From Mobula hypostoma (lineage: Eukaryota), in NCBI RefSeq assembly GCF_963921235.1, contig NC_086097.1, positions 156,366,001 to 156,430,000 on the forward strand: a DNA stretch of 64,000 nucleotides, read 5' to 3'. The notes below the pieces were generated by a model. It saw nothing but the letters and a program-made list of their open reading frames with translations. It ran no database searches and had not been told where the DNA came from. Positions 4,899-61,875 of the stretch are shown piece after piece. Numbering within the stretch: the first letter of the stretch is position 1; each line of letters begins with the position of its first letter. Made by a program: the position numbers and the translations under genes.

Positions 4899-5028
4899 AC
4901 GAGAGAAAATCTGCAGATGCTGGAAATCCAAGCAACACACAAAATGCCAGAGGAACTCAACAGGCCGGGCAGCATCAATGGAAAAGAGTACAGTTGAGAG
5001 TGTGGGCCGAAACCCTTCGGCAGGACAA
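4899..5028 (-). mobile_element. Solo PLE 3'-terminal unit (130 bp) with degenerate hammerhead motif
   Basis: Homologous to 42493-42626. Flanked by a perfect 13-bp TSD tccttaattgtat (4886-4898 and 5029-5041). Confidence 0.85.
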
Positions 5029-8897: not shown

Positions 8898-9212
8898 TTC
8901 TTTCTTGATATCTACATTCTCAGGAAACCTTTCATGCTAGAATATAAACCCATTGGTATGAACAGCAACAGCTTCCTTGAAGTTGCCAGTGAAGGTCAGG
9001 AGGATGTTTAACCCTTGGGGAACATTACATTAATTACCTCTGCCCCTGACACTTCTCTACCTTCCTATAAGAGTCACTTAAGACAGACAGGAAGATTTTT
9101 CCCTCCTTGGAACAATGTGTCACTAAGACTACCTGTACAATTTGAGGCCATGGAAATTATAGTGGGCCTGGGAAGGAAACAGATACTTATTTATTCAGAA
9201 ACAAAAAATCAA

Positions 9213-9480
9213 AGTAATACACACAAGATGCTGGAGGAACACAACAGATCAGGCAGCATCTATGGAAAAAGTAAACCGTTGTCAACTTGGGCCGAGACCC
9301 TTCATCAGGACTGGAAAACAAAACGATTAAAAGATGGTGGGGGTGGGGACGGAGAAGTACAAGGTAGTAGGTGATAGGTGAAGCCGGGAGAAAGGGAAGG
9401 CTGAAATAACCAGATGGGAAGACAATTGGTAAAAGAGATAAAGGGTTGGAGAAGAGGGATCCGATAGGAGAGGATAGTAA
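9213..9480 (-). mobile_element. PLE 3' region, outer part of the left arm of a nested inverted PLE
   Basis: Homologous to 42528-42770. Hammerhead remnant ccagtcCTGATGAagggtctcggccc lacks the GAAA. Homology resumes at ~10722. Confidence 0.8.
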
Positions 9481-12005: not shown

Positions 12006-12006
12006 G

Positions 12007-13195: not shown

Positions 13196-13199
13196 TATT

Positions 13200-13445: not shown

Positions 13446-14239
13446 AGTAGCACTCCTCCTGCATTTCTGTGTGTTGTTCAAGGTTTACAGCATCTACAGA
13501 ATCTCTTGTGTTCAGAGAGTGCGTGCTTAGTTTTGCACACATTTTTAATGAGTTTCCTTTTTTTAAGATAATGAAATATTATTAAAAGCATGTCTGCTAT
13601 GCAAGATTTTTGAAGACGAGTACTGGCTTTGCTCCATCACATCCTTCTAGCCAAATTAATTCTCTCTATGGTGTAAACATCAATGTTCAACAAGATGGTA
13701 AAATTCTTAGATCAGACTTTCAACCTCAGCCAATTAATATTGTCCTAAACTTTAAGATTATTCTCTGCATAGGATTTACTCACTATACCATAATACTGGT
13801 CTCTTCATAGAGCTTGTCAATGGCACATAAACCAGTTGTAATTCTGAAGCAGTAAAGCAGGAGAAATTGCCTTCTGTTGAACCAGTATCAATTATATCTT
13901 GGGAAGAAATATGAAGACTATTCACTCAAATGGAGAGGAACAACTGTGGGGAATGGGGGTAAGCATATTTGCAATATGTTTGGAATTAATTAAGATAATT
14001 TATCTGTTTTACTTGCTTCAATTGCATTCTATATTTTAATCGTTTCCACTTTTAAATCTTGTTTTATTAACTTTTGGGTTTTTGAACCTATTTGAATTGA
14101 AAGTCTGAACAGGTTTGACAACTGGCAAACCATTGCCATGCTATAAGACCATAAGACCATAAGACAAAGGAGCAGAGGTCGGCTGTTCGGCCCATCGAGT
14201 CTGCTCCGCCAAATATCATGAGCTGATCCATTCTCTCAT

Positions 14240-17072: not shown

Positions 17073-17211
17073 TGCAACTCATCCCAATGGCTACAAATTT
17101 GCCCCATCACCTGCCTGTCTTTCCTGACATCTTTACTGCTCACTATCTTAGATTTATTTCTGTTTTCCCCTTCCTTCGCTCTGTCATTCCAGTTCCCATC
17201 CCCCTGCCAAA

Positions 17212-18121
17212 TTAGTTTAAACCCTCCCTAACAGCTCTATTAAACTTTCCCGCCAGGATACTGGTCCCCTTCAGGTTCAGGTGTAATCTGTCCATTTTGA
17301 ACTGGTCATACTTCCCCCAGAGGAGATCCTAATTATCCAAGAATCTGAAGTCTTGCCCCCTGCACTAGTTTCTCAGCCATGCATTCATCTGCCTGATACT
17401 ACCATTCTTGCCCTCACTAGCACATGGCACAGGTAGTAATCCCAAGATTACTACCCTGGAGGTCCTGCTTCTCAGCCTCCTTCCTAACTCCCAGAAATCT
17501 CTCTTCAGGACCTCCTCCTTTGTCCTATCTATGTCATTGGTACCAACATGTACCAAGACAACTGGCTGCTCACCCTCCCCCTTCAGAATATTCTGGACCC
17601 GATCCAAGACATCCTGTACCCTGGCACCTGGGAGGCAACACACCATGCGGGTATCTCTATCAGACTCACAGAATCTTCTGTCCGTTCCTTTGACTATGGA
17701 ATCCCCTATGACTACCGCATTCCTCTTCTCCCTCTTTCCCTCCTGTACAACAGCACCAGGCTCAGTGCCAGAGACCCGGTCACCGTGGGCGTCCCCTGTC
17801 AGGTCATCCCCCTCAACAACATCTAGAACAAGATATTTATTGCTGAGGAGGACAGCCACAGGTGTGCTCTCCACTATCTGGGCATTTCTCTTCCATCTCT
17901 TGACCGTGACCCAGTTTTCTAACCCCTGTAGCTCCTGTCTATCACCTCTTCACTTTCCCTGATAAGCAGTAGGTCATCAAGCTGCAGCTCCAGATCCCTA
18001 CACGGTCTCTGAGGAGCTGCATCTCAGTGCACCTGGTGCCGATATGGCCATCAGGGAGGCTGGAAGTCTCCCAGGATTCCCACATCTGACACCCTGAACA
18101 AAGCACTAACCCTGCAGGCAT
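17212..18121 (-). pseudogene. CR1 ORF1 (zinc finger/coiled coil plus SGNH/GDSL esterase domain), disrupted
   Basis: ATG at 18121 gives MPAGLVLCSGCQMWE...HIGTRC. Esterase blocks are VVIGDSIV, VHVGTND and DRLH. Premature TAG at 17365 and indels near 17900-18000. Confidence 0.88.
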
Positions 18122-21986: not shown

Positions 21987-22102
21987 CACAAAGAATTCTG
22001 CAGATGCTGGAAATCCAAAGCAAGGCACACAAAATACTGGAGGAATTCAGCATCAATGGAAATAAATAAGCAGTTGATGTTTCAGGCTGAGACCCTTATT
22101 CA
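21987..22102 (-). mobile_element. Solo PLE 3'-terminal unit
   Basis: Homologous to 42493-42620. 11-bp TSD with one mismatch: atataagtgga (21976-21986) and atgtaagtgga (22103-22113). Confidence 0.8.
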
Positions 22103-23820: not shown

Positions 23821-25475
23821 GACCATAAGATATAGGAGCAGAATTAGCCCATCAAGTCTGCTCTGCCATTCCATTTTTCCTCTCTGCCCTAATCTCCTAC
23901 CTTCCCCTGTAACCCTTGATGCCCTGACCAGTCAAGAAATTATCGTCCTCTGCCTTAAATATACATAAGGACTTGGACTCCACAGCTGCTAGTGTCAAAG
24001 AATTCCACAGATTCACCACTCACTAGCTAAAGAACTTCCTCCTCATCTCCATTCTAAAAGGACACCTTTCGATGGGCTTCAATGAGGACACACCTCATTA
24101 TCTGAATTCGAGTGAATACGGGCACAAAGCCATCAAATGCTCTTCATATGACAAGCCATTTAATCCTGGAATCATTTTCATGAACGTTCTTTGAACCCGC
24201 TCCTGTTTCTACACATCCTCTCACAATGCTCCAAGTGAGTATATTCTATCCATTTAGAAAACAATCAACATTTTCATTTCTTATACCAAAGTACATTACT
24301 ATACACTTCAAGACATTATATTCCATCTGTCACTTCTGTGCCTATTTTCATAATTTGTCTGTCATTTTTTAGCCTCTCTAATTGCTCAAAACTACATGGC
24401 CCTCCACCTATCTTTATGTCATCTGTAAATTTTACAACAAATATATAAGATCCATAGTCCAAATCGTTGACATATAATGTGAAAAGAATCTGTCCTAACA
24501 CAGAACCTCATTGAACACCACAAGTCAGCGGCAGCCAACCAGAAAAGGCTCCCTTTATTCCCACTCTTTGCCTCCTGCCAATCAGCCACTGCTTTAACCA
24601 TTCTAGAATATTTCCTGTAATACCACGGGCTTGTAGCTTGTTAAGCAGCCTCATGTGTGGCACCTTGTCAAAGGTCTTATGAAAATCCAGATACACAATA
24701 TGAACCGATTCTCCTTTGTCTATCTGTTTGTTATTTCTTCAAAGAATTCTGACATATTTGTCAGGCAAGATTTTCCCTTGAGGAAACCATGCTAGCTACA
24801 GCATATTTTGTCATGTTCCTCCAAGTACCCTGAAACCACATCCATAACAATCAACTCCAAAATCTTCTCAACCACTGAGGTCAGACTAACTGGTCCATAA
24901 TTTCCTTTCTTCCACCTCTCGCCCTTCTTGAAGAGTGGAATGACGTTTTCAATTTTCCAGTCTTCTGGAAACATTCCAGATTCTAGTAATTCTTGAAAGA
25001 TCATTACCAATGCCTCCACAATCTCTTTAGCCACCTCTTTCAGAACCCTGGGATGTACAGCATCTGGCCCAGTTGACTTATCTACCTTCAGGCCTTTCAG
25101 TTTCCCAGGAACCTTCTTCCTAGTTATGGTAGCTTCTCACACATGGAACTTCCACCATACTGCTAGTGTCTTCCACAGTGAAGACTGATACTTATTCAGG
25201 TTATCCGTCATTTCCTTGGCCTCCATTACTGCTTCTCCAGCATAGTTTTCCAGCGGTCCGATATCCACTCTCTATTCACGTTTACACTTTTTGTATCTGA
25301 AGAAACTTTTGGTTTCCTCTTTAATATTATTGGCTAGCTTACTTCCATATTCCATCTTTACCTTCTTAGTGACTTTTTTAGTTGCCTTTTTCTCGGTATT
25401 TAAAAGATTCTCAATCCTCTAACTTCCCAGTAAATTTTGCTCTCTCTTTGGCTTTTATGTAGGCTTTGACTTCCA
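23821..25475 (-). mobile_element. Degenerate 5'-truncated CR1 LINE
   Basis: Fragmented RT motifs (PEDWKIENVIPLFKKG, YLDFHKTFDKVPH, KFTDD), internal deletions and a gaccataaga tail. Confidence 0.92.
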
Positions 25476-30510: not shown

Positions 30511-30640
30511 TCTCCTAAGTCAAGATACCTGTGACTGACTGCTGATTGTCCCTGTGAAATGGGTTTTGCAGTCGGAAGAATTTTCTGAGCAAATTGTCAT
30601 AAGTCCAAAACCATATGAAGAATAAATAAAATTAAACAAA

Positions 30641-30862
30641 TCAGATGCTCAACGCACTCAGCAGCTCAGGCAGCATCTGTTGTGGAAATAGACAATCAAC
30701 ATTTTGGACTGTTGAATGGTCCAGATAAAATCCAATTCAGTTGCGGGGTCTTGACCTGAAATGTTGACTTTCCATTCCCTTCACGTATGTTGCCTCAGCC
30801 GTTTGTTTACTCCATTATCTTGCTTGTTAGTCCAGACAATATCTGCCATTTCTTCTGTTTCC
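30641..30862. mobile_element. Degenerate miniature inverted PLE-end element
   Basis: An antisense PLE end (ctcagcagctcaggcagcatctg...atcaacatttt) is followed by a sense end (gggtcttgacctgaaatgttgact...tgttgcct). Confidence 0.55.
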
Positions 30863-31100
30863 AGAATCAGAATCAGAATAAGAATTAGTTTTATATCACT
30901 GACATATGTCACAAATTTGTTGTTTTGCAGCAGCAGTACAGTGCAAAGCAATCTCTGTAAGTTGCAAAGTAAATAAATAGTGTAAAAGATGAGTAACCAG
31001 GTAGTTTTACTGGGTTCATACATCATTCAGAAATCTGATGGTGGGGGGGAAAGAAGGTGTTCTCAAAACGTTGAGCATGTGTCTTAAGGCTTCTGTACTA
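30863..31100 (-). mobile_element. Rex1-like LINE 3' tail fragment
   Basis: (agaatc)n tail and a 3' UTR complementary to 11760-12005. Confidence 0.8.
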
Positions 31101-32920: not shown

Positions 32921-33991
32921 TAACACACAAAACATTGATACAAATATACTGTATATTGGAAATTGAAAAAAGTATTAGGGTATATTGGGAACTAATGTTA
33001 GCACATTAGGCAGAATCAGAAACCATGAAAAAATGACTAATAAATAATTAAATCCAAAAACAGTAATTTTGCTCTTACAGAGAAATACTGATGAAAAATC
33101 TGATTCACCTCAATAACGGAGTTTGAAAAGGTAGCATAACCAAAGCTAGGGCTGAAGATTTGCTATCACATTAATTGGAAAGTAATTTACGTAGGAGAAT
33201 TCTGATTATTCTAGATTGATTGTAGCAGATCACCATATTGGCTTTCATACCATCAGTCTGCAATGATGGCACCTTAAAACTCATCAGCGTTTTGGAATTT
33301 GATATGTTGCTCCTGGATTACTGAATGTTAAAGTGATGTAATGTAAAACTTAGTTTGCTTGGAAAAGCAATCCCTTAAGCTACTTCACCCAATGGAAGCA
33401 AAACACAAAACATTGCCCAAGGACATTTTAAATTGTTTTAAAACTGAACACAGAGCAAGCAGGTAGAAAAAAATGAAGCATTAATTATCTTTCCACACTT
33501 CTCAAAGTACCAGAAGGTATTCCTAACTTAACTTGCTTTAAACAAAAAGAAATCTTCAGCAACATAGATTGTTTTTCAAGTTTAGATTGCTCTTTTTATT
33601 TCAAAGTTTATTTTACTGTGTAAATCCTACCTTATATCTTATATTCCATGTAATTCTTGGATCAATAGTGTTAAAAAAAAGAAACTCTACACTGTTACTC
33701 TTCTGAAATAAAAGCGTATATTGCTGGATATACACTGTGATGGCAAGTCACTTCTTAGCCTGTAGATTCTTGGTTGAATGCTAAGCTTGCTTTCTGAATA
33801 CAGCTGGTGCCAATTGATAAGGTGAAACAATTATGAGTATACTTCCAACTACATGTTTTGTTTAGCTTCTGGTCATAAATGGGAGCCAGTCTTCTGTTCT
33901 TAAAGTGTACCATAAATAGCAAGCAGTAATCAGTTTGAAGTTAAAACTGAGTATCGTCTATAGAACAGCTTTGCAAACAAACTGTTTATAG

Positions 33992-36900
33992 AATCACACA
34001 GGAACTCAGCAGGCCAGCCAGTATCTATGGAAAAGAGTAAACAGTTGATGTTTCTGGACAAGACCCTTCATCCGGACTGGGGAAAATAATAGGAAGCCAG
34101 AGGATGAAGTGAGGGTAGGGGAGGAAGAAATACAGGTGATGGGTAAAACTGGGAGGGAGAAGGAGTGAAGTAAAAAGCTAGGAAGTTAATTGGTGAAAAA
34201 GATCAAGATCTGGAGAAGGGGGAATATGATAGGAGAGGACAGAATGCCATGGAAGAAAGGGAAGGGGAAGGAGCACCAGAGGGAGCTGATGGGCAGGTAA
34301 GGAGATAAAGAGAGAGATGGAAATGGTAATGGGGAATGGTGAAGATAGCTGTAAGATTCAATGTGTTTATAAAAGACATCAGTGGATAAGCTGTCTCGAG
34401 AGATAGATACAGAGAGATCAAGAAAGGGGAGGAAGATGTTGGAAATGGACCGGGTAAATTCAAGGGCAGGGTGGATGTTGAGGCAAAGTTGATAAAGTCG
34501 ATGAGTTCTGCATGGGTGCAGGAAGCACCACCAATGCAGTTGTTAATGTAGTGAGGAAAAAGACCCTATTTTCCCTTCCCCACCACTACCTTGCAATCAC
34601 GTGTCTCTGAAGTTCCACCACCAGCTCTTGGGTCCTCGGAGACTCTATCTTCCTCTCACCCCACTTTTCCTGAACACCCCAACCCTTCCCTCTCCTCTGA
34701 CACTACCAATCCCCATCCCCTCTCTGATCCCAGCTCTTAACTGTGCCAGGTCTTTAGCATTTCTTCTTCAGCTACTCAGTGGATAGAGGCTCAGGTGGCC
34801 CTGATTTGAGGCAGAACGTTCTGTCCACAGTAACGGCCTTACCTTTGTCCCCCTGCTATGATGCTGAGCTCTTCTTCCACCACCTCCATCTCCAAGCCTA
34901 CTTCTTAGACAAGGACTGTCCAGCTTGCACCAATGACCATCTCTCCCATCTTCAACACTCCTCCTCTATTTGGACACCCCACTCTGGTCTTCTGCCTGCT
35001 CTGGATCTTTTCATTGTTAGCTGCTGATGAAACATCACCCTCTTGACTTCACCCCTCCTCTCTCCAATTCCAACCTCACTCCTTCCAAATGCACTGTTCT
35101 CCACTCTCTCCACACTAATCCTACCTCACCATCAAACCCGCAGATAAGGGAGTTGCTGTAGAAGTCTGTAGGACTGATCTCTGCTTTGTTGAGGCCAGGC
35201 GACAACTGTCAGACACCTCCTCTTACTTACCCCTCAAGTAGGACCCCACCAAGGAACACTAGGCCATTAACTCCCACACAATCACTTACCTTATTACCTC
35301 CTGGGATCTCCCATACACAGCTACCAATCTCATAGTTTTCTCACCCCACACCTCCTGTTTCTACCTCCTACCCATTGTTTCTGCTTGTTCCTGCCCCACT
35401 AAATTAATATATGCACATCTCGACTCATTTTTATCCCCCTGGTTCAGTCCCTTCCTACCTACATCCGTGGTACTTCACATGCTCTTGATCTTTCGAGTAC
35501 CCTGGCCCCGATCATTTTATTTTAACAGTGGATGTCCAGTACCTATACACCTCTATTCCCCACCAGGAAGACCTCAAAGCTTTCTGGTTTTTCTGGACAC
35601 CAGACCCAACAATTCCCTTCCACCACGATTCTCCTCTGTCTGGTGGGACTCATCCTCAATGTCAAAAACTCCTCCCACTTCCTTCAAACAAAAGGTGTAG
35701 CCATGGGTACCCGTATGGGTCCCAGCTATGCCTACCTTTTTGTCAGCTATGTGGAACAGTCTATGTTCCAAACCTACCCTGGTGTCCGCCATGTACTACA
35801 CTACATCGACGACTGCATTGATGCTGCTTCCTGCACCCATGCAGATCTCATCACTTTATCAACTTTGCCATCAACTTCCACCCTGTCCTCAAATTTACCT
35901 GGACCATTTCTGACACCTGCCTCCCCTTTCTCAATCTCTCTGTCTCCATCTCTGGAGAAAGCTTATTACTGATGTCTTTTATAAACGCACTGAGTCTCAC
36001 AGCTAACAAGTCTATACCTCTTCCCAGCCTGCTTCTTGTAAATATGCCGTACTCTTCTCTCAATTTCTCCTTTTCCACCTCAACTGCTCTCAAGATGAGG
36101 CTTTTCAATCCAGAACTAAGATGTCCTTCTTCTTCAAAGAAAGGAGCTTCCCTTCTTCAACCATCAACACTGCCCTCAACCACATCTCTTCCATTTCACG
36201 CACGTCTGCTCTTACCCCATCCTCCCGCCACCAGTCCAGAGATAAGGTTCCTCTTGTCCTCACCTATCATGCCACCAGCCTCCACATCCAACACATAATT
36301 CTCCATAGCTTTGGCCATCTCCAACAGGATCCCACTACCAAGCACATCCTTCCCTCTGCCCCACTTTCTTCCTTCCCTATGCAACTCCCTTGTCCATTCG
36401 TCCCTCCCCACTGCTTTCCCTCCTGGCACTTATCCTTGCAACCGAAAGAAGTGTTTCACTTGCCCCTACACCTTCTCCCTCACTAGCATTCATGGCCCCA
36501 AACAGTCCTTCCAGGTGAAGCGACACTTTTTCTGTGAGTCTTTTGGGGTTACCTACTTTATCCAGTGTTTCTGGTACAGCCTCCTATATATCATGAGACC
36601 CAACATAGATTGGGAGAGTGCTTTGCCAAGCACCTACACTTCACCTGCCAGAGAAATGTGGGATCTCCAAGTGGCCATCCATTTTAATTCCACTTCTTAT
36701 TTCCATTCCAACATATCAGTCCGTGGCCTCCTATACTGCCGCAATGAAGCCACACTCAGGTTGGAGGAGCAACACCTTATATTCCGTTTGGGTTGCCTCC
36801 AACCTGATTGCAAGAACATTGATTTGTCGAACATCCAATAATGGCTGCCCCCACCTTCTTTTTCACCATTGCACTTTCCCATTTCCCTCTCTCACCTTAT

Positions 36901-37471
36901 CTCCCTACCTGCCCATCACCTCCTTTTGGTGCTGCTTTCCCTTCCCTTTTTTCCATGGCCTCTTCCTCTCCTATCAGATTCCCCCTCCTCCAACTCTTGA
37001 TCTTTTTCACCAATCAACTTCCTAGCTCTTTACTTCACTCCTCCTCCTCCAGGTTTCACCTATCACTTTGTGTTTCTTCCTCCTCTTCCTCCACCTTCTT
37101 ATTCTGACTTTCCACCTTTTTTTTCCAGTCCTGCCATAACTTATATTCAAAAGAGCCCTTGCCACAACTGTAACACACCTTGTTTGGCCTGGCTGGTTTC
37201 TGTTTAGATGCTGTTCATGCTCACTTTCTTCCTGACTACAACTCAGTTGGATTTCTGTCTCTAGTTTCCATTGAAACAACAATTTCAGTTGCTCTTTGGA
37301 ATATAAGTTGTGTTTCAGTTTGGACCAGGGTCTAATTTCATTGATGAAGGGTCTTGGCCTCAAATATTCACTGTTTACTCTTTTCCACAGATGCTGCCTG
37401 GCCTGCTGAGTTCCTCCAGCATTTTGTCTGTGTTGCTTGGATTTCCAGCATCTGCAGATTTTGTCCTGTTT
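33992..37471 (+). mobile_element. Penelope-like retroelement (Neptune-like), long copy with inverted 5' arm
   Basis: Sense body ~34600-37471 has RT motifs MDVQYLYTSIPH, QTKGVAMGTRMGPSYA and YIDDC, a Cys linker CNRKKCFTCPY, and a degenerate GIY-YIG. Antisense arm at 33992-34560. TSD ctgtttatag (33982-33991 and 37472-37481). Confidence 0.9.
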
Positions 37472-39869
37472 CTGTTTATAGCATCCTGTCTTGCCATTCA
37501 AGGATGCAGGATAGGACAATAAATTATTTATTTTGCTCAGTTTCAAAACAGATAAGCTGACTAAGTTGTTTAGTACAAAGAAGCTTGCAGACCAGACAGA
37601 TAATATTACTTAGCATGTCTATAACTAACCGATTAATGCTGGGAGTTTTATATACTCAATGATGTTAGCTTTACTGGACTAAATGAGGAACTGCACCTCC
37701 AAGATGTTTTTAGACTGTTTGGGTATCTAAGGAAATATCACATGCGTGTGAAGTCAGCCGAGTGGGACAGAAAGAAGTAGAGAGCAGTTCAGGCTTATTG
37801 GGAATGAGTTAAGGAACTTCAAGAAACTGTGGAAGAACTACGGGTGAACTAGAATTCATTCCACTGTCTTTGGTTTCTGTGATGGTCAGCTTGTTCTTCT
37901 GCATCTTCGGTATGTCTTTTTTAGTTTATAGGAATTGTACCTGTGTTTTGGAAATTCTTTGTCCTTTGTGCTTTGCATTTTAGAAATGGTTTGTAATTTG
38001 GAAATGTTTAAGATACAAATCCCCTGTGAATTTTAAACATTTTAAGAAGATTGTTTGGATTTAAACATGTATCACAGAAAATAAATGAATTGTGTTTAAA
38101 ACTACTTTGTTAGCTGGAAGTATCTTCTCCTTTCTAGGAAGAGGAAACCCACTTTTCAAATAATCTCAAAGCAGTGGATGGATTAATTGATCGTCAAGTG
38201 GTTTCAGAGAAGCTTGTTGATTAACAGTGCAGGAAGAAACCCTTCACAAAGAACATAGTATTTTGTAATTGCAATCACTGTTGAAATGTAAGGCAAGTTG
38301 GCAGACAATTTGCCTGCAGATTCTCTTATGGCAATAGAGTCCATGTTTTGCTGACGTTGGCTGAGGACAGAAAAAGTCCCTCCTCTTTGAAGTTGTGGGT
38401 ATGTAAAGATGTGTAATTGTCTAGAAAGATGGTTCAATTACTCACTGTAGTGAACCACTGAATCATTATAGAGATGTGTGTACTGAGTAATTCCATTACC
38501 AGTTGAAAGATTCTACATTCAGCCTTAACTATTTGCAACATTCAAATCCAGGATCGCTATTCTCCAAAAAATCTGAACCAGTGACCAATCATTTGGCTTT
38601 TACATTTAACTCTCTGAAGGCCGGTAGCTCTAAGTATATCTACAGAGACCCATTCCAAAATGCTCTTTTGCTTCATCCATAAATCCTATCTCAGCTTGAA
38701 AGCTAAGGGGACTGTTTCAATGTGATCCGAAAAAGACTTGCTCTCTATTTTAAAGATCTTAAATTTGATCTTGTACCTTTGTTTCAAATACACTTTAAGC
38801 ATCAGGAAATCTATTGACTGTCAGTAACTCAGCATACACATGGATCATCGCCTGGGTGAGGTGTTCAACTGTATGTAGTGGTTCTGGTGTTATACCCCTG
38901 CAGGCACTGGGAGATGGAGTTAAGAAGCAGAAGTGAGCATAAGAGGTTGGATAAACAACATGATCTGTTTTTAAGTAGGGATATTATCTGATTCATTGAA
39001 ACATTGGAAAAAACCTTGGCTCAGAAAATTAAATAGATTGCATAGTGTGTAAGCTGGAATAGATTGTATCTGGCCTGTGGAAAAATATGATTAATAGATT
39101 AAGTGGATTTTTTTCTTCTTCTACTTTTAATTAAGCAAAACGGGTTAATTTAAATATCTGGAACACAGCAGCTACTAAATTCTCCCCTTAATCTGAGCCT
39201 CAGATGATCCTGATTTCAACAGCCCTTCAGCAAAATTATTGATCAAATGCATCGTATTCTCTTCTTCAGCTATGTGAAGCTGAGTCTCAATGTTATTTAT
39301 TGATAATATCCATGACACTGCATTGCAGATTTTTAGTTTAGGTAATTCTGTGAAGTTCTACTGCCTGAGTCTTTTCTTAAGTGGGCTAATATTGCACCGT
39401 CCTTGAGAAAGAATATGCTTATTTCCTTCTTGATTTCCCTTGGTAAACAGAGGGAGGATAGAAGTTGATGTCGTCATCCCTGCTGGAAACCTTATATTTG
39501 CTGCAGGTTAACTCAAATAGCTGACAACCTATTCGACCTTGAGGTAAGATTTTATCTTATCTACAATTCTGCAAGATTGTCTACCTTTGCAACAACCTGC
39601 CACTGATTCCAATTAGTAAGCCAGTTTATGACATGTACAGGTGGGGGAGCATTGCTGGAGTGCGGCCAATATAGCTGGAGGTTTTCTCACTCAATTCCAT
39701 TATCTCTTTATATGAAAACTGGTTGAACTGCCATGTAATTTCAACATCATTTAACATTTATAGATTTTTTTTATTATTATTCTGATCTGAACATTACATG
39801 GAATAAAGGTCAATGAAATAATGGCATTGGATGTGAGAGAGGAAGAAGTTAATAGAGTCATGAAGATAC

Positions 39870-40150: not shown

Positions 40151-41600
40151 CAATTTAACAATCTATTATTTTGGTGATTGTGTTTGCATTCATCTTTGGC
40201 ATTTCATCTCTAATTCTCAAATCCACTTCATTTTTCTTCATTTATTCATCAGGAAAGTCATCCGCACTCTGTAACGCTAATGTTGCCACACATAATGGCG
40301 ACAATTTTTATTTTGCATCTGAAATTTGGACTGAATTTCGGAAACAGTGCGAAGCTCTACCACCATCACACAGCACATTTAGCACCTAGGCAATTTTTTC
40401 TTATTACTCAGGAGTGTGCTCTAAATATTTTTCTTGGCATGGCACTCCATGTGGGCACATATAGTTCAATAAGCCAAACACTGAGCACTTTTGACATGGA
40501 TAGCACTGGAGGCAGAGATAGATCTGAACTTTGGACAAGACTTTCTCTCATTGTTCCCATAATAACTACGAGTTGATGTTCATCTTTACCAAGAATAAAA
40601 GAAATAATTATCTGGGTGAACATTTGCCAAAAGTCATAAAAGATATAATTAAAACCTTGTTGAGGATAATATAGATGTGGAGGATCTTTTAAAGAATGAG
40701 TTTGAAATATCAAATTGAGGGATTATATGGCATTCAGAAATTGTGCTCACCTGACTAGTACAGCTTCCAAGCAGTTTCATTCCAAGCATATTATTAACAC
40801 TAACTACACTCTCTCAATAACCAATGGTCATTTATTCGATCTCTCCACAGATCTGTTTTAGGCATCATATATCCTTAGGCCGTGAAAGCTGCTTGCGTTA
40901 GTCTACATGATTCTGAGGAATGATTTTGGAGTCTAACTATCCCTGCAGCTCCTCTGCCACCTGCTTAGAGTTTTGAACACACTAGCTCAGGAATACCACT
41001 ATGAGTTTAATGGGGGTCACAGAAGGGCTGTTCAAAGTGTGATTTTGCTGTCTGCACCACTGATAGCTGGCTGCATTCTTCACCAGCCAGGGTCTTTTTA
41101 CATTGATATGTACAATATTGAAAAACATTTCCCATTGATGAGTTTGGCAATTCACTAGCTGCAAGTAAACCAGGGTGAAAGCCAATATCAAGATGACAGG
41201 AGTAGGTGGAAGAAGATAAGAACAAATAAACACTTAATTGAGACCCTCAATAACTGACCCACCATATCAGTCTTCCCGAAGGATTAGCTGCTGAGAGGAA
41301 ATAAATTATTCTGGAAGAGGTTCTTACAAACTTGATAGCATTTATTGCTTCCCGCGTACTCATTCTCAAATCATCCACAGACTCACAATGTACTTAACCC
41401 ACTAGAAAATTTTACAAATAAAGCTCATTCAGAGATACAATCAGTTACAAACACCTTACACATTGCAAGTATAAATGACTTGCAGAAAGTTACATAATTT
41501 AACATGACTGCGGACTTTATTTCCAATTAGCAGCAGGCTAATGCTTCCACTTCATTTCTCAGTCAACATGGACCTTCTCAGGACAACAGAGTAATTACAT

Positions 41601-41755
41601 GCAACACACGCAAAATGCTAGAGGCTGTCCTGCTGAAGGGTCTCTGCCGAAAATGTCAGCTGTACTCTTTTCCATAGATGCTGCCTGGCATGCTGAGTTC
41701 CTCCAGCATTTTGTGTGTCTTGCTTGGATTTCCAGTATCTGCAGATTTTCTCTTA
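41601..41755 (+). mobile_element. Miniature inverted PLE-end element (155 bp)
   Basis: 24-bp antisense arm (41601-41624) plus a sense unit starting at the hammerhead stem I. Perfect 13-bp TSD agagtaattacat (41588-41600 and 41756-41768). Confidence 0.88.
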
Positions 41756-41869
41756 AGAGTAATTACATACTCATCTTCCATCACTTCTGTTTGTCCTGTC
41801 AACCACCTGAGTCTCGGCCAGCTCAAAGAGGAACAACATTCACCCATTAGTTACCCTGTAAATGAGTCT

Positions 41870-42105
41870 AGCTATATTCCCATCAACTTCACCCCCACTT
41901 CTTATCTATACATTAGGGGAAAGTTAAATTGTTTAATTAACTTAGAAAACCACGTCTTCAAGAATGTGGGAGGAAAGAGGAGTATCAGGACAAACCCTAA
42001 ATGATCATAGTATTGTGAGAAAACACCTTGCAGTCTCACGAGAGGACAAGACTGAACCTGGACTGCCGGTGTTGTGAAGCAGCAACTCTACCAGCTGGGC
42101 TATTA
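41870..42105 (-). mobile_element. Degenerate V-SINE/HE1-like SINE
   Basis: ttaattaacttag...cgtcttcaagaatgtgggaggaaa...gaacctggactgccggtgttgtgaagcagc. Confidence 0.6.
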
Positions 42106-42590
42106 TTCTGTCCTTATCCAACTTTTCAAATCTGTGAATGTAATTCCTCATTATGTAAAATTGATTTGTTTTCCTGGCCAAACAGCTGCTGTAATTTGGA
42201 TTAATCTCAAAACCAGAATGCCTTTATGACAATGTGTTCTTCCCATTTACAAACCATTCAGGTGCACATCAAATGGTCCACTTAACCACACTTGCAGTCC
42301 CTGCATTAATGGAGATTTAAATTCGGAACAATATAATGTACCAATGTGAACAAGGCCTTTAATCTCACTGTGATTCAATGGAACAATGAGGCACAGATTT
42401 TTACTTGATCAGGATATATTCAGCAGCTATATGACCTCACTTGAAATTGTAGCCAAATCTCTATAAGTGCATCTCATTTGGTATATCAACATAAACAACA
42501 GGAATTCTGCAGATGCTGGAAATTCAAGCAACATACATCAAAGTTGCTGGTGAACGCAGCAGGCCAAGCAGCATCTATAGGAAGAGGCGC

Positions 42591-42626
42591 AGTCGACGTT
42601 TCAGGCCGAGACCCTTCGTCAGGACT
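42591..42626 (-). ncRNA. Minimal type I hammerhead ribozyme motif (left arm)
   Basis: Reverse complement reads AGUC-CUGACGA-AGGGUCUCGGCCU-GAAA-CGUC-GACU, identical to the right-arm copy. Confidence 0.8.
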
Positions 42627-44545
42627 AACTGAAGGAAGAGTGAGTTAGGGATTTGAAAGCTGGAGGGGGAGGGGGAGATGCAAAATGATAGGAGAAGACA
42701 GGAGGGGGAGGGATAGAGCCGAGAGCTGGACAGGTGATAGGCAAAAGGGGATACGAGAGGATCATGGGACAGGAGGTCCGGGAAGAAAGACGGGGGGGGG
42801 GTTACCCAGAGGATGGGCAAGAGGTATATTTAGAGGGACAGAGGGAGAAAAAGGAGAGTGAGAGAAAGAATGTGTGCATAAAAATGAGTAACAGATGGGG
42901 TACGAGGGGGAGGTGGGGCCTAGCGGAAGTTAGAGAAGTCAATGTTCATGCCATCAGGTTGGAGGCTACCCAGACGGAATATAAGGTGTTGTTCCTCCAA
43001 CCTGAGTGTGGCTTCATCTTTACAGTAGAGGAGGCCGTGGATAGACATGTCAGAATAGGAATGGGATGTGGAATTAAAATGTGTGGCCACTGGGAGATCC
43101 TGCTTTCTCTGGCGGACAGAGCGTAGATGTTCAGCAAAGCGGTCTCCCAGTCTGCGTCGGGTCTCACCAATATATAAAAGGCCACATCGGGAGCACCGGA
43201 CGCAGTATATCACCCCAGTCGACTCACAGGTGAAGTGATCCCTCACCTGGAAGGACTATTTGGGGCCCTGAATGGTGGTAAGGGAGGAAGTGTAAGGGCA
43301 TGTGTAGCACTTGTTCCGCTTACACGGATAAGTGCCAGGAGGGAGATCAGTGGGGAGGGATGGGGGGGACGAATGGACAAGGGAGTTGTGTAGGGAGCGA
43401 TCCCTGCAGAATGCAGAGAGAGGGGGGGAGGGAAAGATGTGCTTAATGGTGGGATCCCGTTGGAGGTGGCGGAAGTTACGGAGAATAATATGTCGGACCC
43501 AGAGGCTGGTGGGGCGGTAGGTGAGGACCAGGGGAACCCTATTCCTAGTGGGGTGGTGGGAGGATGGAGTGAGAGCAGATGTACGTGAAATGGGGGAGAT
43601 GCGTTTAAGAGCAGAGTTGATAGTGGAGGAAGGGAAGCCCCTTTCTTTAAAAAATGAAGACATCTCCCTCGTCCTAGAATGAAAAGCCTCATCCTGAGAG
43701 CAGATGTGGCGGAGACGGAGGAATTGCGAGAAGGGGATGACATTTTTGCAAGAGACAGAGTGAGAAGAGGAATAGTCCAGATAGCTGTGAGCTATCTACT
43801 ATAAGCCTACTGACTCTCACAGCTATCTCCCTCCTGGCACTTATCCGTGTAAGCGGAACAAGTGCTACACATGCCCTTACACTTCCTCCCTTACCACCAT
43901 TCAGGGCCCCAAACAGTCCTTCCAGGTGAGGCATCACTTCACCTGTGAGTCGACTGGGGTGATATACTGCGTCCGGTGCTCCTGATGTGGCCTTTTATAT
44001 ATTGGTGAGACCCGACGCAGACTGGGAGACCGCTTTGCTGAACATCTACGCTCTGTCCGCCAGAGAAAGCAGGATCTCCGAGTGGCCACACATTTTAATT
44101 CCACATCCCATTCCCATTCTGACATGTCTATCCACGGCCTCCTCTACCGTAAAGATGAAGCCACACTCAGGTTGGAGGAACAACACCTTATATTCCGTCT
44201 GGGTAGCCTCCAACCTGATGGCATGAACATTGACTTCGCTAACTTCCGCTAGGCCCCACCTCCCCCTCGTACCCCATCTGTTACTCATTTTTATGCACAC
44301 ATTCTTTCTCTCACTCTCCTTTTTCTCCCTCTGTTCCTCTGAATATACCTCTTGCCCATCCTCTGGGTCACCCCCCCCCCGTCTTTCTTCCAGGACCTCC
44401 TGTCCCATGATCCTCTCGTATCCCCTTTTGCCTATCACCTGTCCAGCTCTCGGCTCTATCCCTCCCCCTCCTGTCTTCTCCTATCATTTTGCATCTCCCC
44501 CTCCCCCTCCAGCTTTCAAATCCCTTACTCACTCTTCCTTCAGTT

Positions 44546-44581
44546 AGTCCTGACGAAGGGTCTCGGCCTGAAACGTCGACT
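44546..44581 (+). ncRNA. Minimal type I hammerhead ribozyme motif (right arm)
   Basis: Stem I AGUC/GACU, core CUGACGA, short stem II, GAAA, near-absent self-complementary stem III (ACGU). The GUC triplet predicts cleavage after 44577. PLEs are known to carry such motifs. Confidence 0.8.
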
Positions 44582-44689
44582 GCGCCTCTTCCTATAGATG
44601 CTGCTTGACCTGCTGCGTTCACCAGCAACTTTGATGTGTGTTGCTGGTATATCAACATGTTCAATTACAAACAATGGTTTGGTGAAAGG

Positions 44690-50361: not shown

Positions 50362-51280
50362 TTCAAGTTCAAGTTCGAGTTTATTTGTCTCCTGACTGTA
50401 CATATATATAACCAAATGAAACACCATTTCTCTGGACATGGTGCACCCAAAATACATATTCCACACAAAGCACATACACCAAAATGTTGCCACAATTAAA
50501 TTAATAAAATGCAAATCAAAATGCGCAGGTTAACAATAAACAGTAAACAGGTCACATTCCTAGTGATGAGACATCGGTGGTGGCAGGGTTTTCATTAGCC
50601 TCACAGCCTGAGGAAAGAAGCTGTTACCCAGTCCGGCAGTCCTAGTCCTGATGCAGCTATGCTTTCTTCTTGATGGTAGTAGGTCTAGTCAAAGAGATTG
50701 TGGGATGGGTGGTAGGGATCCTCAACAATGCTTTAAGGCCTAAAGCATTATTGAGGATCCCTACTACCCATCCCACAGTCTCTTTCACCAGCTATCATCA
50801 GGAAGGAAGTACAGGTGCATCAGGACTGTACCACAGGCCCTTCGATTAATAGTAAGGGCCCATTGCATGATAAATGGTTTGGAACTCCTGCTTTAGGCCC
50901 TTTGCATATAACACTCCAGTAAATGTCACAGATTGGAGGGAGGGAGACCTTTGTGATCCTCTTGCCAGTTCCTACTATCCTCTGTATGGTCTTGCAGTCT
51001 GATGTCCTGCAGCTTCCATACAACACAATGATGCAGCCAGACAGGACACTCTCAATAGTCCTCCTGCCGAAAGTTGTTAAAATGGGGGTGGGGATCCTTG
51101 CAAGCCTCAATCTCCTCAAAAAGTGTTGATGCTACTGTGCCTTCTTGAGTAATGAGGTGGTGTCCTTTATGTGCATACCAAGGAAACGGTGCTCTTCACC
51201 CTCTCCACAGCAGAGCCATTGATATGCAACGGAGATTGATAGATCTACACCTTCCTGAAGTCCACCGTCATCTCTTTTCA
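50362..51280 (-). mobile_element. Rex1-like LINE 3' part with internal fold-back and MITE remnant
   Basis: RRLRLARIPTPILTTFGRRTIESVLSGCIIVLYGSC and an (aagttc)n tail. Confidence 0.8.
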
Positions 51281-52829
51281 TATGCCATTAGCTGACTTAC
51301 GTTGGGTGTGTAAGGGTAAGAAAACAAATAATAAAGGAATGTGCAGAGTCCACAATCCAAAAAGTTAAATGGCTTTACTCAACATGAGCTGCACAAGTCA
51401 AACAACTTTAATGGGAAAAATAATTGATTGCAAAGGAATCTTAAATAATGAATAAAAATCAATTCACACAGATAGCTCTACTTTGTTACCTGCCCTTTTA
51501 CTCTGATCCTATTGTTACAAGACTTCCTCTCTTCTTGTCCCTGAGATACAGATGTTCCCTCAGGATATCCATGATTAACTCATGCCCTTGAAAAGCCAGC
51601 GTCAAACTATGATGTACCAAGCGGTGTCCCTTCAGTTTGGGAAATTAACCTAGTTTTCAAAGGTTGGGTGGTACCTAGTGGCGGTAGGAGAGATCATAAT
51701 GTCCTGATCAAAGATAGGAGTCTCCAATCCTCCACTACCGTATGCATTCTCTTGGTACAAGGCAGCCTGCATAATTGTCATCATTCCCTTCAAAACCCTG
51801 CTAACAGACTGTAAATAATAATTTCTCCTTGACTGCATTACCAGCTTCCCACAGAGCAGGCAACTGCTGTCACTGGGGATCAGCCCGTTGCAGGTTCGGG
51901 CTTAGCCGAGCTCTGGTGGTCAGTTAACATGTGTCAATGGAGACAAACACCTGCTCCTTCAGCTGCCACGTTTCCCCAGCTTTCTCCTGGCCTGGCATAG
52001 CAGAGAGAATCACTGCCAGAAGAATGGTTCTGAACAGAAGTTGCTGAAAGAATAAGGACCAGGACTCTATGTTCAAATTCACCATATGGATGCAGCTTAC
52101 AAGGGCAGCTGGGGCTGATTGACTCTCTGCACTGAAATCATCAGGCTCAGTATCTCTCATTATCCTGTGTAAATGCAGCCCACTATTGTCTATTGTCCTT
52201 CCTTGTGAAATTAGCCTTCTTTAATTCGATCTCGTCTTTAGCAATGACATTTTCTGAATTGATGCCCTATAGGCTTAGCTGCATGAAAGCTGTGAGCATT
52301 TTTCATATGTAGCAGCTGGTCACGCCATCTCCTGCTGTGAAGGTGACACAGGATCTCCTCTGGAGAGGCAGGCTACCTTTCAGAGCCGAAGGGAAAAAGG
52401 AATACATGCTAGGTTCTCCTGCAGTAATATCTCATCACTAAACACTAAACTACAATGAGAACATTTGCAGTACATTGTATTTTCTGGCAAATATTGACTC
52501 CTATGTTTGAAACCACTTATTTAATGTATCAGAGTGATGGGTTCATACTGAAAGAATGGCTGGTACACTGGGACAATTTTGCAGGAGGTAAAGCATTTTA
52601 GTGAAGTCTCTAATACCTAGAACTATGCAAGATTATGAGTATGCACCTTATCACAAGCTTTGCCTACACACCTATGACGCTACCACAGTGGAGTTCACAC
52701 AGTGCATGAGCCTTATGGTGTCTCAGTTGGACATGGCACGTTTCAATAGCCTCTACTTCTTGCTTCAATTTGATACTTGTTTTGGATGGTACCTGAGTAT
52801 GTGTGCTTCTGTGTTGTCTACAACGCTAT

Positions 52830-53245
52830 AAATTCCGTCTGGTTTGCCTCCTGATGGCATAAACATCGCTTTCTCAAACTTCTGATAATCCCCCCCTTCA
52901 CCATTCCTCATCTTCTTTCCCCTCTCTCACCTTATCTCCTTGCCTGCCCATCACGTCCTTCTGATTCTCTTCCCGTATTTTCTTTCTTCCACGGCCTTCT
53001 GTCCCCTCCTATTAGGTTTCCTCTTCTCCAGCCCTGCATCTCTTTCCTCAATCCTTCCCAACTCTTTACTTCAACCCTCCTGGTTTAACCTATCATCTTG
53101 TGATTCTCCCTTCCTTCCCACCACCTTCTAATTCTGACCCCTCATCTTTTCTTCTCCAGTCCTGCTGAAGGGTCTCGGCCCAAAACATCGACTGTACTAT
53201 TTTCCATAGATGCTGCGTGGCCTGCTGAGTTTTGTGTGTGTTTCT
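52830..53245 (+). mobile_element. PLE 3' fragment with degenerate hammerhead
   Basis: Collinear with 44190-44640. cagtcCTGCTGAagggtctcggcccAAAAcatcgactg at 53157-53194. Confidence 0.85.
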
Positions 53246-55299: not shown

Positions 55300-55455
55300 A
55301 CTTAAAGCAGAAAATGCTGGGAATACTCAGCAGGTTAGGCAGCATCTGGCAAAGAGAACCAGTTATGGGATCTGATGAAAGATTTTGGATCTGCAACATC
55401 AACTGATATTTCTTTCCAGAACTGCTGCGTGAAATCAGCACTTTCTGTTTCTATG
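55300..55455. mobile_element. Older miniature inverted PLE-end element
   Basis: Antisense arm (cagaaaatgctgggaatactcagcagg...gcagcatctg), then CTGATGA at 55372-55378, then a sense arm ending cagcactttctgttt. Confidence 0.55.
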
Positions 55456-58727: not shown

Positions 58728-60347
58728 CAGTGGTATGCAAATGTTTGGGCACCCATGGTCAAGATTTCTGTTACTATGAATCATTATGTGAGTAGAAGAT
58801 GAACTGATCTCCAAAAGTCATAAAGTTAAAGATGAAACATTCTTTTCAACATTTTAAGCAAGATTAGTGTATTATTTTTGTTTTGTGCAATTTTAGAGTG
58901 AAAAAAAGGAAAGGAGCACCATGCAAAAATTTGGGCATGCCAAGAGATTTCAGCTCTCAGATAACTTTTACTAAGGTCTCAGACCTTAATTAGCTTGTTA
59001 GGGCTATGTCTTGCTCATAATCATTGTTAGGAAAGGCCAGGAGATGCAAATTTCAAAGCTTTATAAATACCCTGACTCCTCAAACTTTGTCCCTCAAACA
59101 ATCAGCAGCCATGGGCTCCTCTAAGCAGCTGCCTAGCACTCTGAAAATTAAAATAAATGATGCCCACAAAGCAGGAGAAGGCTATAAGAAGATAACAAAG
59201 TGTTTTCTGTTAGCCATTTCCTCAGTTCGTAATGTAATTAAGAAATGACAGTTAACAGGAACGGTGGAGGTCAAATTGAGATCTGGAAGACCAAGAAAAC
59301 TTTCCGAGAGAACTTCTCGTAGGATTGCTAGAAAGGCAAATCAAAACCCCCGTTTGACTGCAAAAGACCTTCAGGAAGCTTTAGCAGACTCTGAAGTGGT
59401 GGTGCACTGTTCAACTGTGCAGTGACACCTGCACAACTATGACCTTCATGGAAGAGTCATCAGAAGAAAACCTTTCCTGCATCCTCACCACAAAATTCAG
59501 CATCAGAAGTTTGCAAGGGAACATCTAAACAAGCCTGATGTATTTTGGAAACAAGTCCTGTGGACTGTTGAAATTAAAATAGAACTTCTTGGCCGCAATG
59601 AGCAAAGGTATGTTTGGAGAAGAAAGGGTGCAGAATTTCATGAAAAGAACCCCTCTCCAACTGTTAAGCACGGGGGTGGATCGATCATGCTTTGGGCTTG
59701 TGTAGCAGCCAGTGGCACGGGGAACATTTCACTGTTAGAGGGAAGAATGAATTCAATTAAATACCAGCAAATTCTGGAAGCAAACATCACACCGTCTGTA
59801 AAAAAGCTGAAGATGAAAAGAGGATGGCTTCTACAACAGGATAATGATCCTAAACAAACCTCAAAATCCACAATGGACTACCTCAAGAGACGCAAGCTGA
59901 CAGTTTTGCCATGGCCCTCACAGTCCCCCGACCTAAGCATCATCGAGAATCTGTGGATCGAACTCAAAAGAGCAGTACATCCAAGATGGCCCAAGAATCT
60001 CACAGAACTAGAAGCCATTTGCAAGGAAGAATGGGTGAAAATCCCCCAAACAAGAATTGAAAGACTCTTAGCTGGCTACAGAAAGTGTTTACACACTGTG
60101 ATACTTGTCAAAGGGTGCGTTACTAAATATTGACCATGCAGGGTGCCCAAACTTTTGCTTCGGGCCCTTTTCCTTTTTTTGTTATTTTGAAACTGTCAAA
60201 GATAGAAATAAAGAAGTAGTCTTGCTTAAAATATTAAAGAAACGTGTCATCTTTAACTTTATGCCTTTTGGAAATCAGGTCATCTTTTACTCACTTAGCT
60301 ATTCACGGTAACAGAAATTTTGACCGGGGTGCCCAAGCGTTTGCATG
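58728..60347 (+). mobile_element. Tc1 DNA transposon, IR/DR type, full span
   Basis: TA|CAGTGG left end. ~210-bp TIRs (58728-58942 and 60136-60347), each with two copies of a tgcaaa..tttgggca direct repeat. Central transposase. Confidence 0.95.
59111..60133 (+). pseudogene. Tc1 DD34E transposase pseudogene (340 codons, single frame)
   Basis: MGSSKQLP...SGRPRK...RRKP...LWTVE...KHGGGSIMLW...QQDNDPK...WPSQSPDLSIIENLW. TGA stops at 59246 and 59423. The first catalytic Asp reads Val. Confidence 0.93.
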
Positions 60348-61875
60348 TCACCATATGCAGTTCTGAGATCCATTTTCTTGAGGGCACAATCAGCAATTCG
60401 ACAGGGTAGTAACTATAACAGAGTCAATGAAAGGTCAACCAGAGTGCAGAAGACAATAAATTGTGCAAATGCAAATATAAATAAATAGCAATAAATAATG
60501 AGAAAATAGCATAATGAGATAAAGAATCTTTGAAAATGAGATCATTGGTTGATGAGAAATTTTCAATAATGGGGCAAGTGAAGTTGAATGTAGTTATCCT
60601 CTTTCATTCAAGAGCCTGATGGTTGAGAAGTAGTAGCTGTTCCTTGAACCTGTTGATGCGAATTCTGAGGCACTTCTCCCTGATGGCAGAAGTGAGAAGA
60701 CAACACGACTTGGGTGGTGGGGAACTCTGATAAAAGATGCTGCTTTCTTATGACAGTGTTTCCTGAAGATATGCTCAATAGTTGAGATGGATTTATTCAT
60801 GATGTACTGTAGGAATTTTGTCGGATTTTCCGTTCAAAGGTATTGGTGTTTCCATACCAGGCTATGATGCAGTCAATATACTCACCACAGCACATCTATA
60901 GAAGTTTGACAAAGTTTTAGATGTCATTTTGAATCTCTGAAAAATCCTAAAGAAGTTGAGGTGCTGCCACGTTTTCCTTGCAATCGCACTTATTGCTGAA
61001 TGCAGGACAGGTCCTCTGAAATAGAAACGCCCAGAAATTTAAGAAGTTGCTGACCCTCTCCACCTCTGATCCTTTGATGAGGACTGGCACATGGACCTCT
61101 GGTTCCCTCTCCTGAAGTCTATAATCAGTTCCTTAATCTTGCTGACATTGAGTGAGAGATTAATGTTATGATACCACTCAGCCAGATTTTCATTCTCCCT
61201 GCTATATGCTGATTCATCATCACTTTTGATTCAGCCCATGATAGTGGTGTCATCAGCAAACCTGAATATGACATTGGAGCTATGCTTAGCCACACAGTCA
61301 TAAGCATAAGGTGAGTAGAGCAGGGGGCTAATCACGGCCCTGTGATTATACAAATACAAAAAAAAAACAAAATAGGAACTAGCAATAGGTAAGTAAGTAA
61401 TAAATAATATTGAGAACATGAGTTGCAGAGTGAGACCATAGGTTGTGGAATCAGCTGAGTGTTGGAGTGAATGAAGTTTTCAACTCTGGTTCAGGAACCT
61501 GATGGTTGAAAGGTAATAACTGTTCCTGAACCTGGTGGTGTGGGACCTAAGGATCCCTATAACTTCTTCCAGGTGACAGCGGTGAGAAGGGAACATGAAC
61601 ACAAAAAAATCTGCAGATCCTGGAAATCTAAGCAATACACACAAGATACTGCAGGAACTCAACAGGCAAGTCAGCATTTATGGAAAAGAGTAAACCGTCA
61701 ATATTTCGGGCCGAGACCCTTCATCAGGACATCAGGACAAAGAGCAGGCCTGGATGGTGTGGGTTATTGATTATGGATGATGCTTTCCCGTGTCTGAGCT
61801 CCTTGTAGGTGTGCTCAATAGTGGGGAGGACTTTACCTGTTATGGACTGAGCTGTATCCACTATTTTTTGTAGTT
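60348..61875 (-). mobile_element. Rex1-like LINE fragments (at least two)
   Basis: RVPHHPSRVVFSLLPSGR, IFRFADDTTIMG and HTTRFRNSYY. The outer tail lies left of the Tc1, at 58688-58727. Confidence 0.85.
61598..61738 (-). mobile_element. Solo PLE 3'-terminal unit with apparently intact hammerhead core
   Basis: Homologous to 4899-5028. Minus strand 61697-61730 reads GUC-CUGAUGA-AGGGUCUCGGCCC-GAAA-UAUU-GAC. An 8-bp atcaggac duplication sits at its 5' end. Confidence 0.8.

Follow-up and report, generated by a model that had tools for sequence, protein, structure and literature searches.

Insertions left by endonuclease (EN)-bearing Penelope-like elements (PLEs) have been described before. In the available text of Craig et al., an inverted 5'-truncated copy often adjoins the 5' end of the element, and a tail of 30 to 40 bp is often found at one end only (PMC8557442). 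The accessible portion of the report by Arkhipova et al. describes a 31-bp tail on one inverted pLTR, TSDs of 8 to 10 bp, and solo pLTRs (PMC3846280), and that of Schostak et al. describes a 34- to 37-bp repeat together with inverted repeats whose size varies (PMC2377424). A curation guide, in its excerpted text, likewise warns of inverted pLTRs and 3' extensions (PMC8969392), and minimal hammerheads in pLTRs have been described by Cervera and de la Pena in the available part of their paper (PMC4209133). The closest biochemical system is PAc, the Poseidon element of Anolis carolinensis. According to the accessible text of Frangieh et al. (2024), PAc cleaves and extends both strands and prefers AT-rich DNA, and its RT begins at two internal sites, one at each border of the tail, on an RNA that runs on into the ORF (PMC11167929).

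Here we compare with these systems a 155-bp miniature insertion in a 64,000-nucleotide stretch of Mobula hypostoma DNA, the whole of which is referred to as the window. The positions of the features are collected in Table 1.

Structure of the miniature insertion

The insert (41601-41755) is bounded by an exact 13-bp TSD, agagtaattacat, present at 41588-41600 and 41756-41768 (13/13 identical; P = 0.002 against 2000 random places in the window). The preliminary description had reported a 155-bp insert with a 13-bp TSD and an antisense arm starting at gcaacacac, and all of these were recovered: the antisense stub begins with those bases and is identical at 21 of 24 positions to the insert's own sense unit (41700-41723). 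Taken alone, the stub gave an nhmmer E value of 0.019. The sense unit (41625-41755) measures 131 nt, and its final 32 nt are absent from the stub. Its first bases form the 5' strand of helix I of a hammerhead that is now decayed and was matched neither by the hammerhead descriptor nor by Rfam. Because longer copies continue into RT and GIY-YIG coding sequence, and a hammerhead stands at the start of the unit, the miniature represents the 3'-terminal 131 nt of a PLE, comprising pLTR and tail, joined to an inverted partner of 24 nt.

The miniature itself is noncoding, with RT and GIY-YIG remnants found only in longer copies. From an ATG at 41678, a frame stays open through the tail (41678-41755), and the same is seen in the copy at 37391-37471; this ATG is a possible candidate for the start of the element's ORF. 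In the family of the young palindrome described below, no matching ATG frame through the tail was found.

Table 1. Positions of PLE-derived features in the window
Feature	Position	Strand	Evidence
Miniature: left TSD, 13 bp, AT-rich	41588..41600	+	Direct-repeat test versus random places
Miniature: inverted stub of PLE 3' end, 24 nt, without tail; outer end is the tail boundary	41601..41624	-	21/24 to 41700-41723
Miniature: decayed minimal type I hammerhead of pLTR; core CTGCTGA, not CTGANGA	41625..41668	+	Alignment with intact copies
Miniature: remaining pLTR up to gttgc-type anchor	41669..41723	+	Comparison with other copies
Miniature: PLE tail, 32 nt, at one end only	41724..41755	+	Comparison of stub versus sense unit
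Miniature: right TSD, 13 bp	41756..41768	+	Direct-repeat test versus random places
Palindrome (young, 2152 bp): left copy of 14-bp TSD, the right one being 44645-44658	42479..42492	+	Direct-repeat test; contigs of three related organisms match no further than 42492
Palindrome: tail-bearing 5'-truncated PLE copy	42493..43791	-	Pfam, translation, hammerhead descriptor, alignment
Palindrome: sense junction piece, 36 nt	43792..43827	+	Alignment
Palindrome: tail-less arm, 817 nt, ends gttgc	43828..44644	+	Alignment
Older tail-less inverted arm, internal deletion	33996..34560	-	82-87% like partner; TSD 33982-33995
Older tail-bearing partner copy, RT and EN remnants	34563..37471	+	Pfam, alignment; TSD 37472-37485
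Solo unit, hammerhead border to tail end, no inverted stub	4899..5028	-	Exact 13-bp TSD
Solo unit with tail	21987..22102	-	11-bp TSD, 1 mismatch
Solo copy without tail, EN end to anchor	52813..53240	+	13-bp TSD, 1 mismatch
Solo unit with tail	61598..61732	-	blast/nhmmer maps; no TSD found
Copy with partial or decayed tail, no proven partner	9206..9474	-	blast, tail comparison
Old head-to-head pair of unit	30640..30868	.	E 2.6e-6/3.7e-4
Old head-to-head pair of unit	55308..55431	.	E 9.8e-6/1.3e-4

Identity of the element

A GIY-YIG domain was recognized by Pfam at 42923-43255 (E = 8e-5, above the cut-off), and an RT remnant at 35526-35969, upstream of the EN in the copy at 34.5 to 37.5 kb, scored below the cut-off (E = 8e-4). 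The scan covered 11 frames, and 3 of the 7 PLE-related frames matched anything; the RT copies in the window are frameshifted. The GIY-YIG translation reads VIY-C-x2-CxxC-x3-YIG with two later His residues, so that a CxxC lies between GIY and YIG (the CCHH motif), and a linker motif, CKRNKCYTC (CX4CX2C), is found upstream of it. When a 290-residue piece, with one stop read as X, was used as the protein query against proteins of 509 to 2000 residues, the best of 17 homologues was a zebra-shark protein with 61% amino acid identity over the whole query (E = 3e-109). Another protein, P0018, is a 1005-aa ray NACHT/LRR gene model with a stretch 61% identical to the PLE protein, probably a PLE fragment in the annotation.

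The available text of Craig et al. gives a zinc-finger-like CX2-5CxxC linker motif as a mark of Neptune and Nematis that is absent in Penelope/Poseidon (PMC8557442). By its predicted protein, the element is an EN+ PLE with a Neptune/Nematis-type linker, carrying the linker zinc finger whose absence is the criterion for the Penelope/Poseidon clade. Upstream of the unit, longer copies run into a pyrimidine-rich region and then into coding sequence. The hammerhead descriptor found an intact core at three places, all in copies of this family (42622, 44550, and 61727), and gave two additional matches outside the family when one mismatch was allowed; the Rfam scan of the window returned three chance-level hits and no hammerhead. 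The intact hammerheads of the pLTR conform to the predicted minimal type I motif. We hold the PLE identity of the unit with very high confidence.

Tail lengths and TSDs

The arm end that had been noted at a fixed place ~32 to 35 nt before the 3' end is the boundary of the PLE tail: the distances from anchor to TSD were 32, 33, 33, 35, and 35 nt in all five tail-bearing copies with a TSD. The tail was confined to the longer copy in all three TSD-bounded inverted insertions. TSDs of 2 or 8 bp had been named beforehand as evidence against retrotransposition, and those found were of 11 to 14 bp (13, 14, 13, 11, 14, and 13 bp in six of nine candidate insertions). The remaining three candidates (61598-61732, 30640-30868, and 55308-55431) had no significant TSD.

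In RNA folding, the unit did not surpass shuffled sequences (z = -0.2 to -0.8; anchor region, -0.1 to -1.9). Microhomology between target and tail at the tail-less ends was also considered and was not supported, with P < 0.05 at three of nine ends (palindrome, 12/22; 53243, 11/22; 9206, 14/22) and a score of 10/22 for the miniature (P = 0.11). The score at 9206 probably reflects a real, decayed tail rather than microhomology. The pooled continuations of contig ends are simply AT-rich.

Other insertions in the window

The palindrome (42493-44644) is 2152 bp long with an exact 14-bp TSD (42479-42492 and 44645-44658). Its short arm had been said to end at the same position as the stub of the miniature, and the same gttgc was seen there. 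The left copy holds the RT thumb/linker with CX4CX2C, the GIY-YIG endonuclease with an in-frame stop just upstream of it, and the 3' region, along with an intact minimal hammerhead and a 35-nt tail (42493-42527). The junction piece consists of 24 nt from just upstream of the left copy's 5' end and 12 nt overlapping that copy, which makes the centre of the palindrome a 12-bp stem with a 24-nt loop. Beyond it, 435 nt are skipped at a microhomology of 4 nt. The tail-less arm differs from 42528-43344 at 14 positions, with no gaps, over 817 nt. Contigs of organisms B, C, and E quit matching exactly at 42492 and then run on for 340, 338, and 16 letters, and a contig of organism A crosses this position into the element. 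This fits a putative empty site and a young insertion, in agreement with the 14 differences per 817 nt between the arms. As a side observation, the palindrome was probably once a near-perfect 1.3-kb hairpin that was turned asymmetric by deletion or template jump.

The older composite insertion of 3.5 kb (33996-37471) has a 14-bp TSD with one mismatch (P = 0.0015). At its start, the inverted arm misses the anchor by 1 to 5 nt, and it has lost 10 nt to a deletion; the hammerhead of the partner copy is split by an insert of ~210 bp. Two family copies, this one included, are interrupted within or just after the hammerhead by inserts of 210 to 260 bp (37131-37341 and 13186-13446), for which no second copy was found within the window. 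In two tail-less copies, 10 nt are missing directly upstream of the anchor (33996-34010 and 53215-53235). The breakpoints are not the same in both, and these gaps look as if RT had jumped over a small stem shortly after it began at the inner site. The TSD of the tail-less solo copy at 52813-53240 overlaps the element's tgtgtg.

Antisense arms with the same starting point had been proposed at ~9213 and ~33992. The latter holds, since 33996 is paired under the 14-bp TSD, but the former was not shown to be an arm: the copy takes in 8 nt or more of the tail (its blast match reaches 9206; 14/22 tail-like bases, P = 0.001), and none of the three pairings tried for it had a significant TSD (P = 0.06 and 0.30 with the downstream sense copy). 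Pairing with the sense copy at 12006-13511 was rejected (66 to 68% identity, TSD not significant). Further pieces of the 9206 copy lie at 10724-10895 and 11312-11425. Older miniatures had also been suggested at 30641-30862 and 55300-55455. Both are head-to-head pairs of the unit, found in a search whose control, the reversed window, gave 0 hits, but neither has a significant TSD (P = 0.08 to 0.66). With arms 61 to 66% alike, the pairs are real but too decayed for a TSD.

Elements of other kinds are also present in the window. Long RT-bearing frames at 14240-17949, 7949-8911, and 24792-25136, all on the minus strand (RVT_1 E = 4e-32 and 2e-11 for the first two; one nearly full length), resemble what we take to be CR1-type LINEs. 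A Tc1-type transposase remnant (DDE_3 and HTH_Tnp_Tc3_2) lies at 59426-60133 on the plus strand, and an 85-bp near-perfect hairpin at 50696-50780 gave weak scores against two miRNA models, below the gathering thresholds.

Evidence from public contigs

Four runs of public contigs were aligned to positions 41450 to 42800 (1.35 kb) at 80% likeness, with 82,000 to 216,000 contigs per run. Among the matches listed (24 of 2342 loose-end rows, 6 per run), the largest 3' end was at 41718 in all four runs (2595, 2207, 1793, and 1364 contigs), with mixed AT-rich continuations (agreement, 0.38 to 0.39). Loose ends at 41754 were among the matches listed in two of the four runs (1263 and 998 contigs) and were not among the rows of X9 and X16. 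Position 41718 is a stand-in for the anchor region because the reference has a private base at 41719; this private substitution sharpens the peak, and subfamily variants add to it. Arm end points scattered at random had been named as a result that would speak against a fixed site, and the contig ends instead peak at both sites among the matches listed. Loose ends at 41724 and 41725 were rejected as ends, being subfamily variants whose continuation is the tail itself. Joints from 41718-41724 to 42523-42527 on opposite strands were likewise rejected as an artefact of two homologous copies in the reference.

Whether miniatures share an internal junction or have unique ones had been posed as a test of amplification. 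Depth over the stub and junction was ~1,250 to 8,200, compared with 13 million in the unit core (X1, a run that may come from the window's own source), a ratio of 10^-3 to 10^-4, where depth is not equal to copy number. The junction of the miniature is not amplified, and the insertion is not an amplified MITE, though a small family is possible. Contigs spanning the left TSD, the stub, and the junction are present in organisms A, B, and E, and because all three carry them, the miniature is older than the split of these organisms; the flanks differ between organisms at 15/768 and 41/768 positions. Pattern scans of viral and metagenome contigs yielded 0 loci.

Mechanism of insertion

The miniature is very probably a dead-on-arrival, heavily 5'-truncated insertion of an EN-bearing PLE. 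The GIY-YIG/RT protein would nick AT-rich DNA at staggered positions 11 to 14 bp apart, and reverse transcription on the element RNA would be primed by each free 3' end at one of two fixed sites ~32 to 35 nt apart. The cDNA from the outer site would include the tail (131 nt here), and the cDNA from the inner site would lack it (24 nt). The two would then be joined head to head, with repair leaving the TSD. The miniature, the 2.15-kb palindrome, and the 3.5-kb composite could all come from one type of event, with cDNA lengths differing, and a second cDNA of no length would give a solo unit. By analogy with the anole PLE in vitro, twin priming in this form (nicks and two-site priming) seems to us fairly probable, and two priming events make the best-fitting model. 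The preliminary description had also proposed two priming events and had placed one at the RNA 3' end. The two end points ~32 to 35 nt apart are confirmed and fit the first proposal. As to the second, the outer site probably does not correspond to the RNA 3' end: both start sites of PAc, the one PLE tested in vitro, are internal to an RNA that continues into the ORF, and the insertions here have no poly(A). A caveat to twin priming comes from the palindrome, whose two copies have ends no more than 24 nt apart, a closeness that independent cDNAs would not require.

The PLE identity would be kept if, instead, one cDNA folded back, or an antisense RNA primed itself, to form a hairpin from which the endonuclease trimmed the tail of one arm. 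The available passages of Craig et al. ascribe the tail to EN-mediated resolution (PMC8557442), those of Arkhipova et al. infer self-priming from palindromes at inverted junctions (PMC3846280), and the 2.15-kb insertion, with its central stem and loop, was probably such a near-perfect hairpin before the 435-nt skip. We nevertheless regard folding back with trimming as unlikely. The inner ends are highly unequal (24 versus 131 nt, and ~0.56 versus 2.9 kb in the 3.5-kb case), the junction of the miniature has no microhomology for a snap-back, a tail-less solo copy with a TSD exists (52813-53240), and the 2024 in vitro work places RT starts directly at both tail borders. Moreover, the 24-nt loop of the palindrome is in the sense orientation, that of the tail-less arm, and so belongs to the tail-less cDNA, which cannot template a tail; at this one junction, the orientation favours two cDNAs over a simple snap-back of a tail-bearing cDNA.

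An inverted repeat and a TSD within 155 bp would also be expected of a MITE or fold-back DNA transposon, bounded by terminal inverted repeats and multiplied in one piece by a transposase, and a Tc1-type transposase remnant is present in the window (59426-60130). This origin is extremely improbable, however, given that the TSDs vary from 11 to 14 bp, the arm lengths differ at every locus, and the junction depth lies far below that of the core. The proposal of retrotransposition rather than DNA transposition is upheld by the continuity of the unit with RT/GIY-YIG coding sequence in longer copies. The companion description of the insertions as MITE-looking fold-backs needs qualification, in that the 24-bp inverted repeat of the miniature is not terminal on the right, lying 32 bp inside that end, and its junction is not amplified. 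A title-level literature search found no publication on PLE copies misclassified as MITEs or DNA transposons.

The 5' border of short copies

Both-strand priming at two fixed sites, our preferred account of the ends, is compatible with a further reading of the ~130-nt unit as a non-autonomous element (a solo pLTR, a retrozyme monomer, or a SINE-like unit) that has a defined 5' end at the hammerhead border and is moved in trans by the PLE protein, as opposed to being truncated by chance from a full-length RNA. In three of the four short tail-bearing copies, the 5' end falls no more than 2 nt from gtcctg, and in the fourth it lies ~5 nt inside (41625, 5028, 61732, and 22102); shorter 3'-only copies were not found in the blast and nhmmer maps of the window. 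The same border, 42624-42626, is where 4 of the 12 joint rows among the matches listed leave the unit, and depth drops upstream of it in all four runs. PLE-derived non-autonomous hammerhead repeats with monomers are described in the available text of two reports (bioRxiv 10.64898/2026.07.22.740005 and PMC7229834). However, the copies number four and the joints listed are 12 of 800 rows, subfamily divergence confounds the drop in depth, the same pattern would follow if RT stalled at a structured motif, and the blast and nhmmer maps of the window contain no tandem array of the unit. We therefore treat a non-autonomous unit as a tentative possibility.

At all six long loci, a pyrimidine tract and YAG resembling a splice acceptor stand at the helix I border of the hammerhead (e.g., 9312, 34078, and 53158). 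The intron of Drosophila virilis Penelope ends at the 5' end of helix I, according to the accessible text of Cervera and de la Pena (PMC4209133). The start of the short copies is a lead to either a discrete processed RNA or merely an RT stop. In one contig (X5), a joint at the hammerhead border returns from 42626 to 42516, a same-strand step of ~110 nt, which hints at possible tandem, retrozyme-like units elsewhere in the genome. A broader generalization is that the very-high-copy PLEs of elasmobranchs preserve a natural record, across the genome, of inverted insertions made by both-strand priming at the tail borders, and that the ~130-nt miniatures derive from a discrete RNA with its 5' end set at the helix I border. 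This strikes us as quite improbable; if true, it would mean a PLE parasite, spliced or processed and non-autonomous, whose insertions take the form of small hairpins.

Comparison with known systems

The finding mainly confirms known PLE biology in another host and helps the correct annotation of an abundant repeat. The public contigs are numerous enough in each run to decide between twin priming and fold-back with trimming, and they are a resource for testing whether the two sites used by Poseidon also serve a Neptune-type element. A title-level literature search found no publication on this PLE family in sharks or rays.

With the canonical insertion units of EN+ PLEs, the insertions share the head-to-head inverted copy, the one-sided tail of 32 to 35 nt, the variable TSD, and strong 5' truncation, as well as the hammerhead in the pLTR, the palindrome at the inversion junction, and a pLTR and tail that open a reading frame; the ATG frame through pLTR and tail resembles the ORF start described for Adineta PLEs. 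The miniature differs from these units in its extreme truncation (a 24-nt stub and a 131-nt unit), the TSDs are 11 to 14 bp here versus 8 to 10 bp for Adineta, and no direct-repeat partial tandem is present in this window. Like PAc, the family has two fixed ends a tail length apart, downstream of the hammerhead, with AT-rich targets and use of both strands. PAc, in contrast, is a Poseidon without the linker zinc finger, whereas the window family has CX4CX2C; its start site is an AC-rich stem loop, whereas the anchor here is GU-rich on the sense strand; and the in vitro work on PAc did not reconstitute an inverted insertion.

In L1 twin priming, two target-primed cDNAs are joined head to head inside one TSD, the second priming site may lie anywhere upstream, and the two pieces barely overlap. 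Unlike in L1, the two pieces here start at fixed sites within a shared 3' region, and no poly(A) is present. The "Chompy" MITEs of crocodilians may be PLE-derived. As far as the available text describes them, non-LTR retrozymes and non-autonomous PLE derivatives share with the miniature a short noncoding unit, a pLTR-related type I hammerhead, dispersed monomers, and a TSD of >4 bp (PMC7229834 and 10.64898/2026.07.22.740005). Retrozymes are defined there by tandem arrays with intact hammerheads, and self-cleaved circular RNA is a further mark of the group, whereas the miniature is a single monomer whose hammerhead core has decayed and which carries an inverted stub. Compared with the available text of the PLE reports, the insertion pattern is the published PLE signature and not a new mechanism (PMC8557442, PMC3846280, and PMC11167929).
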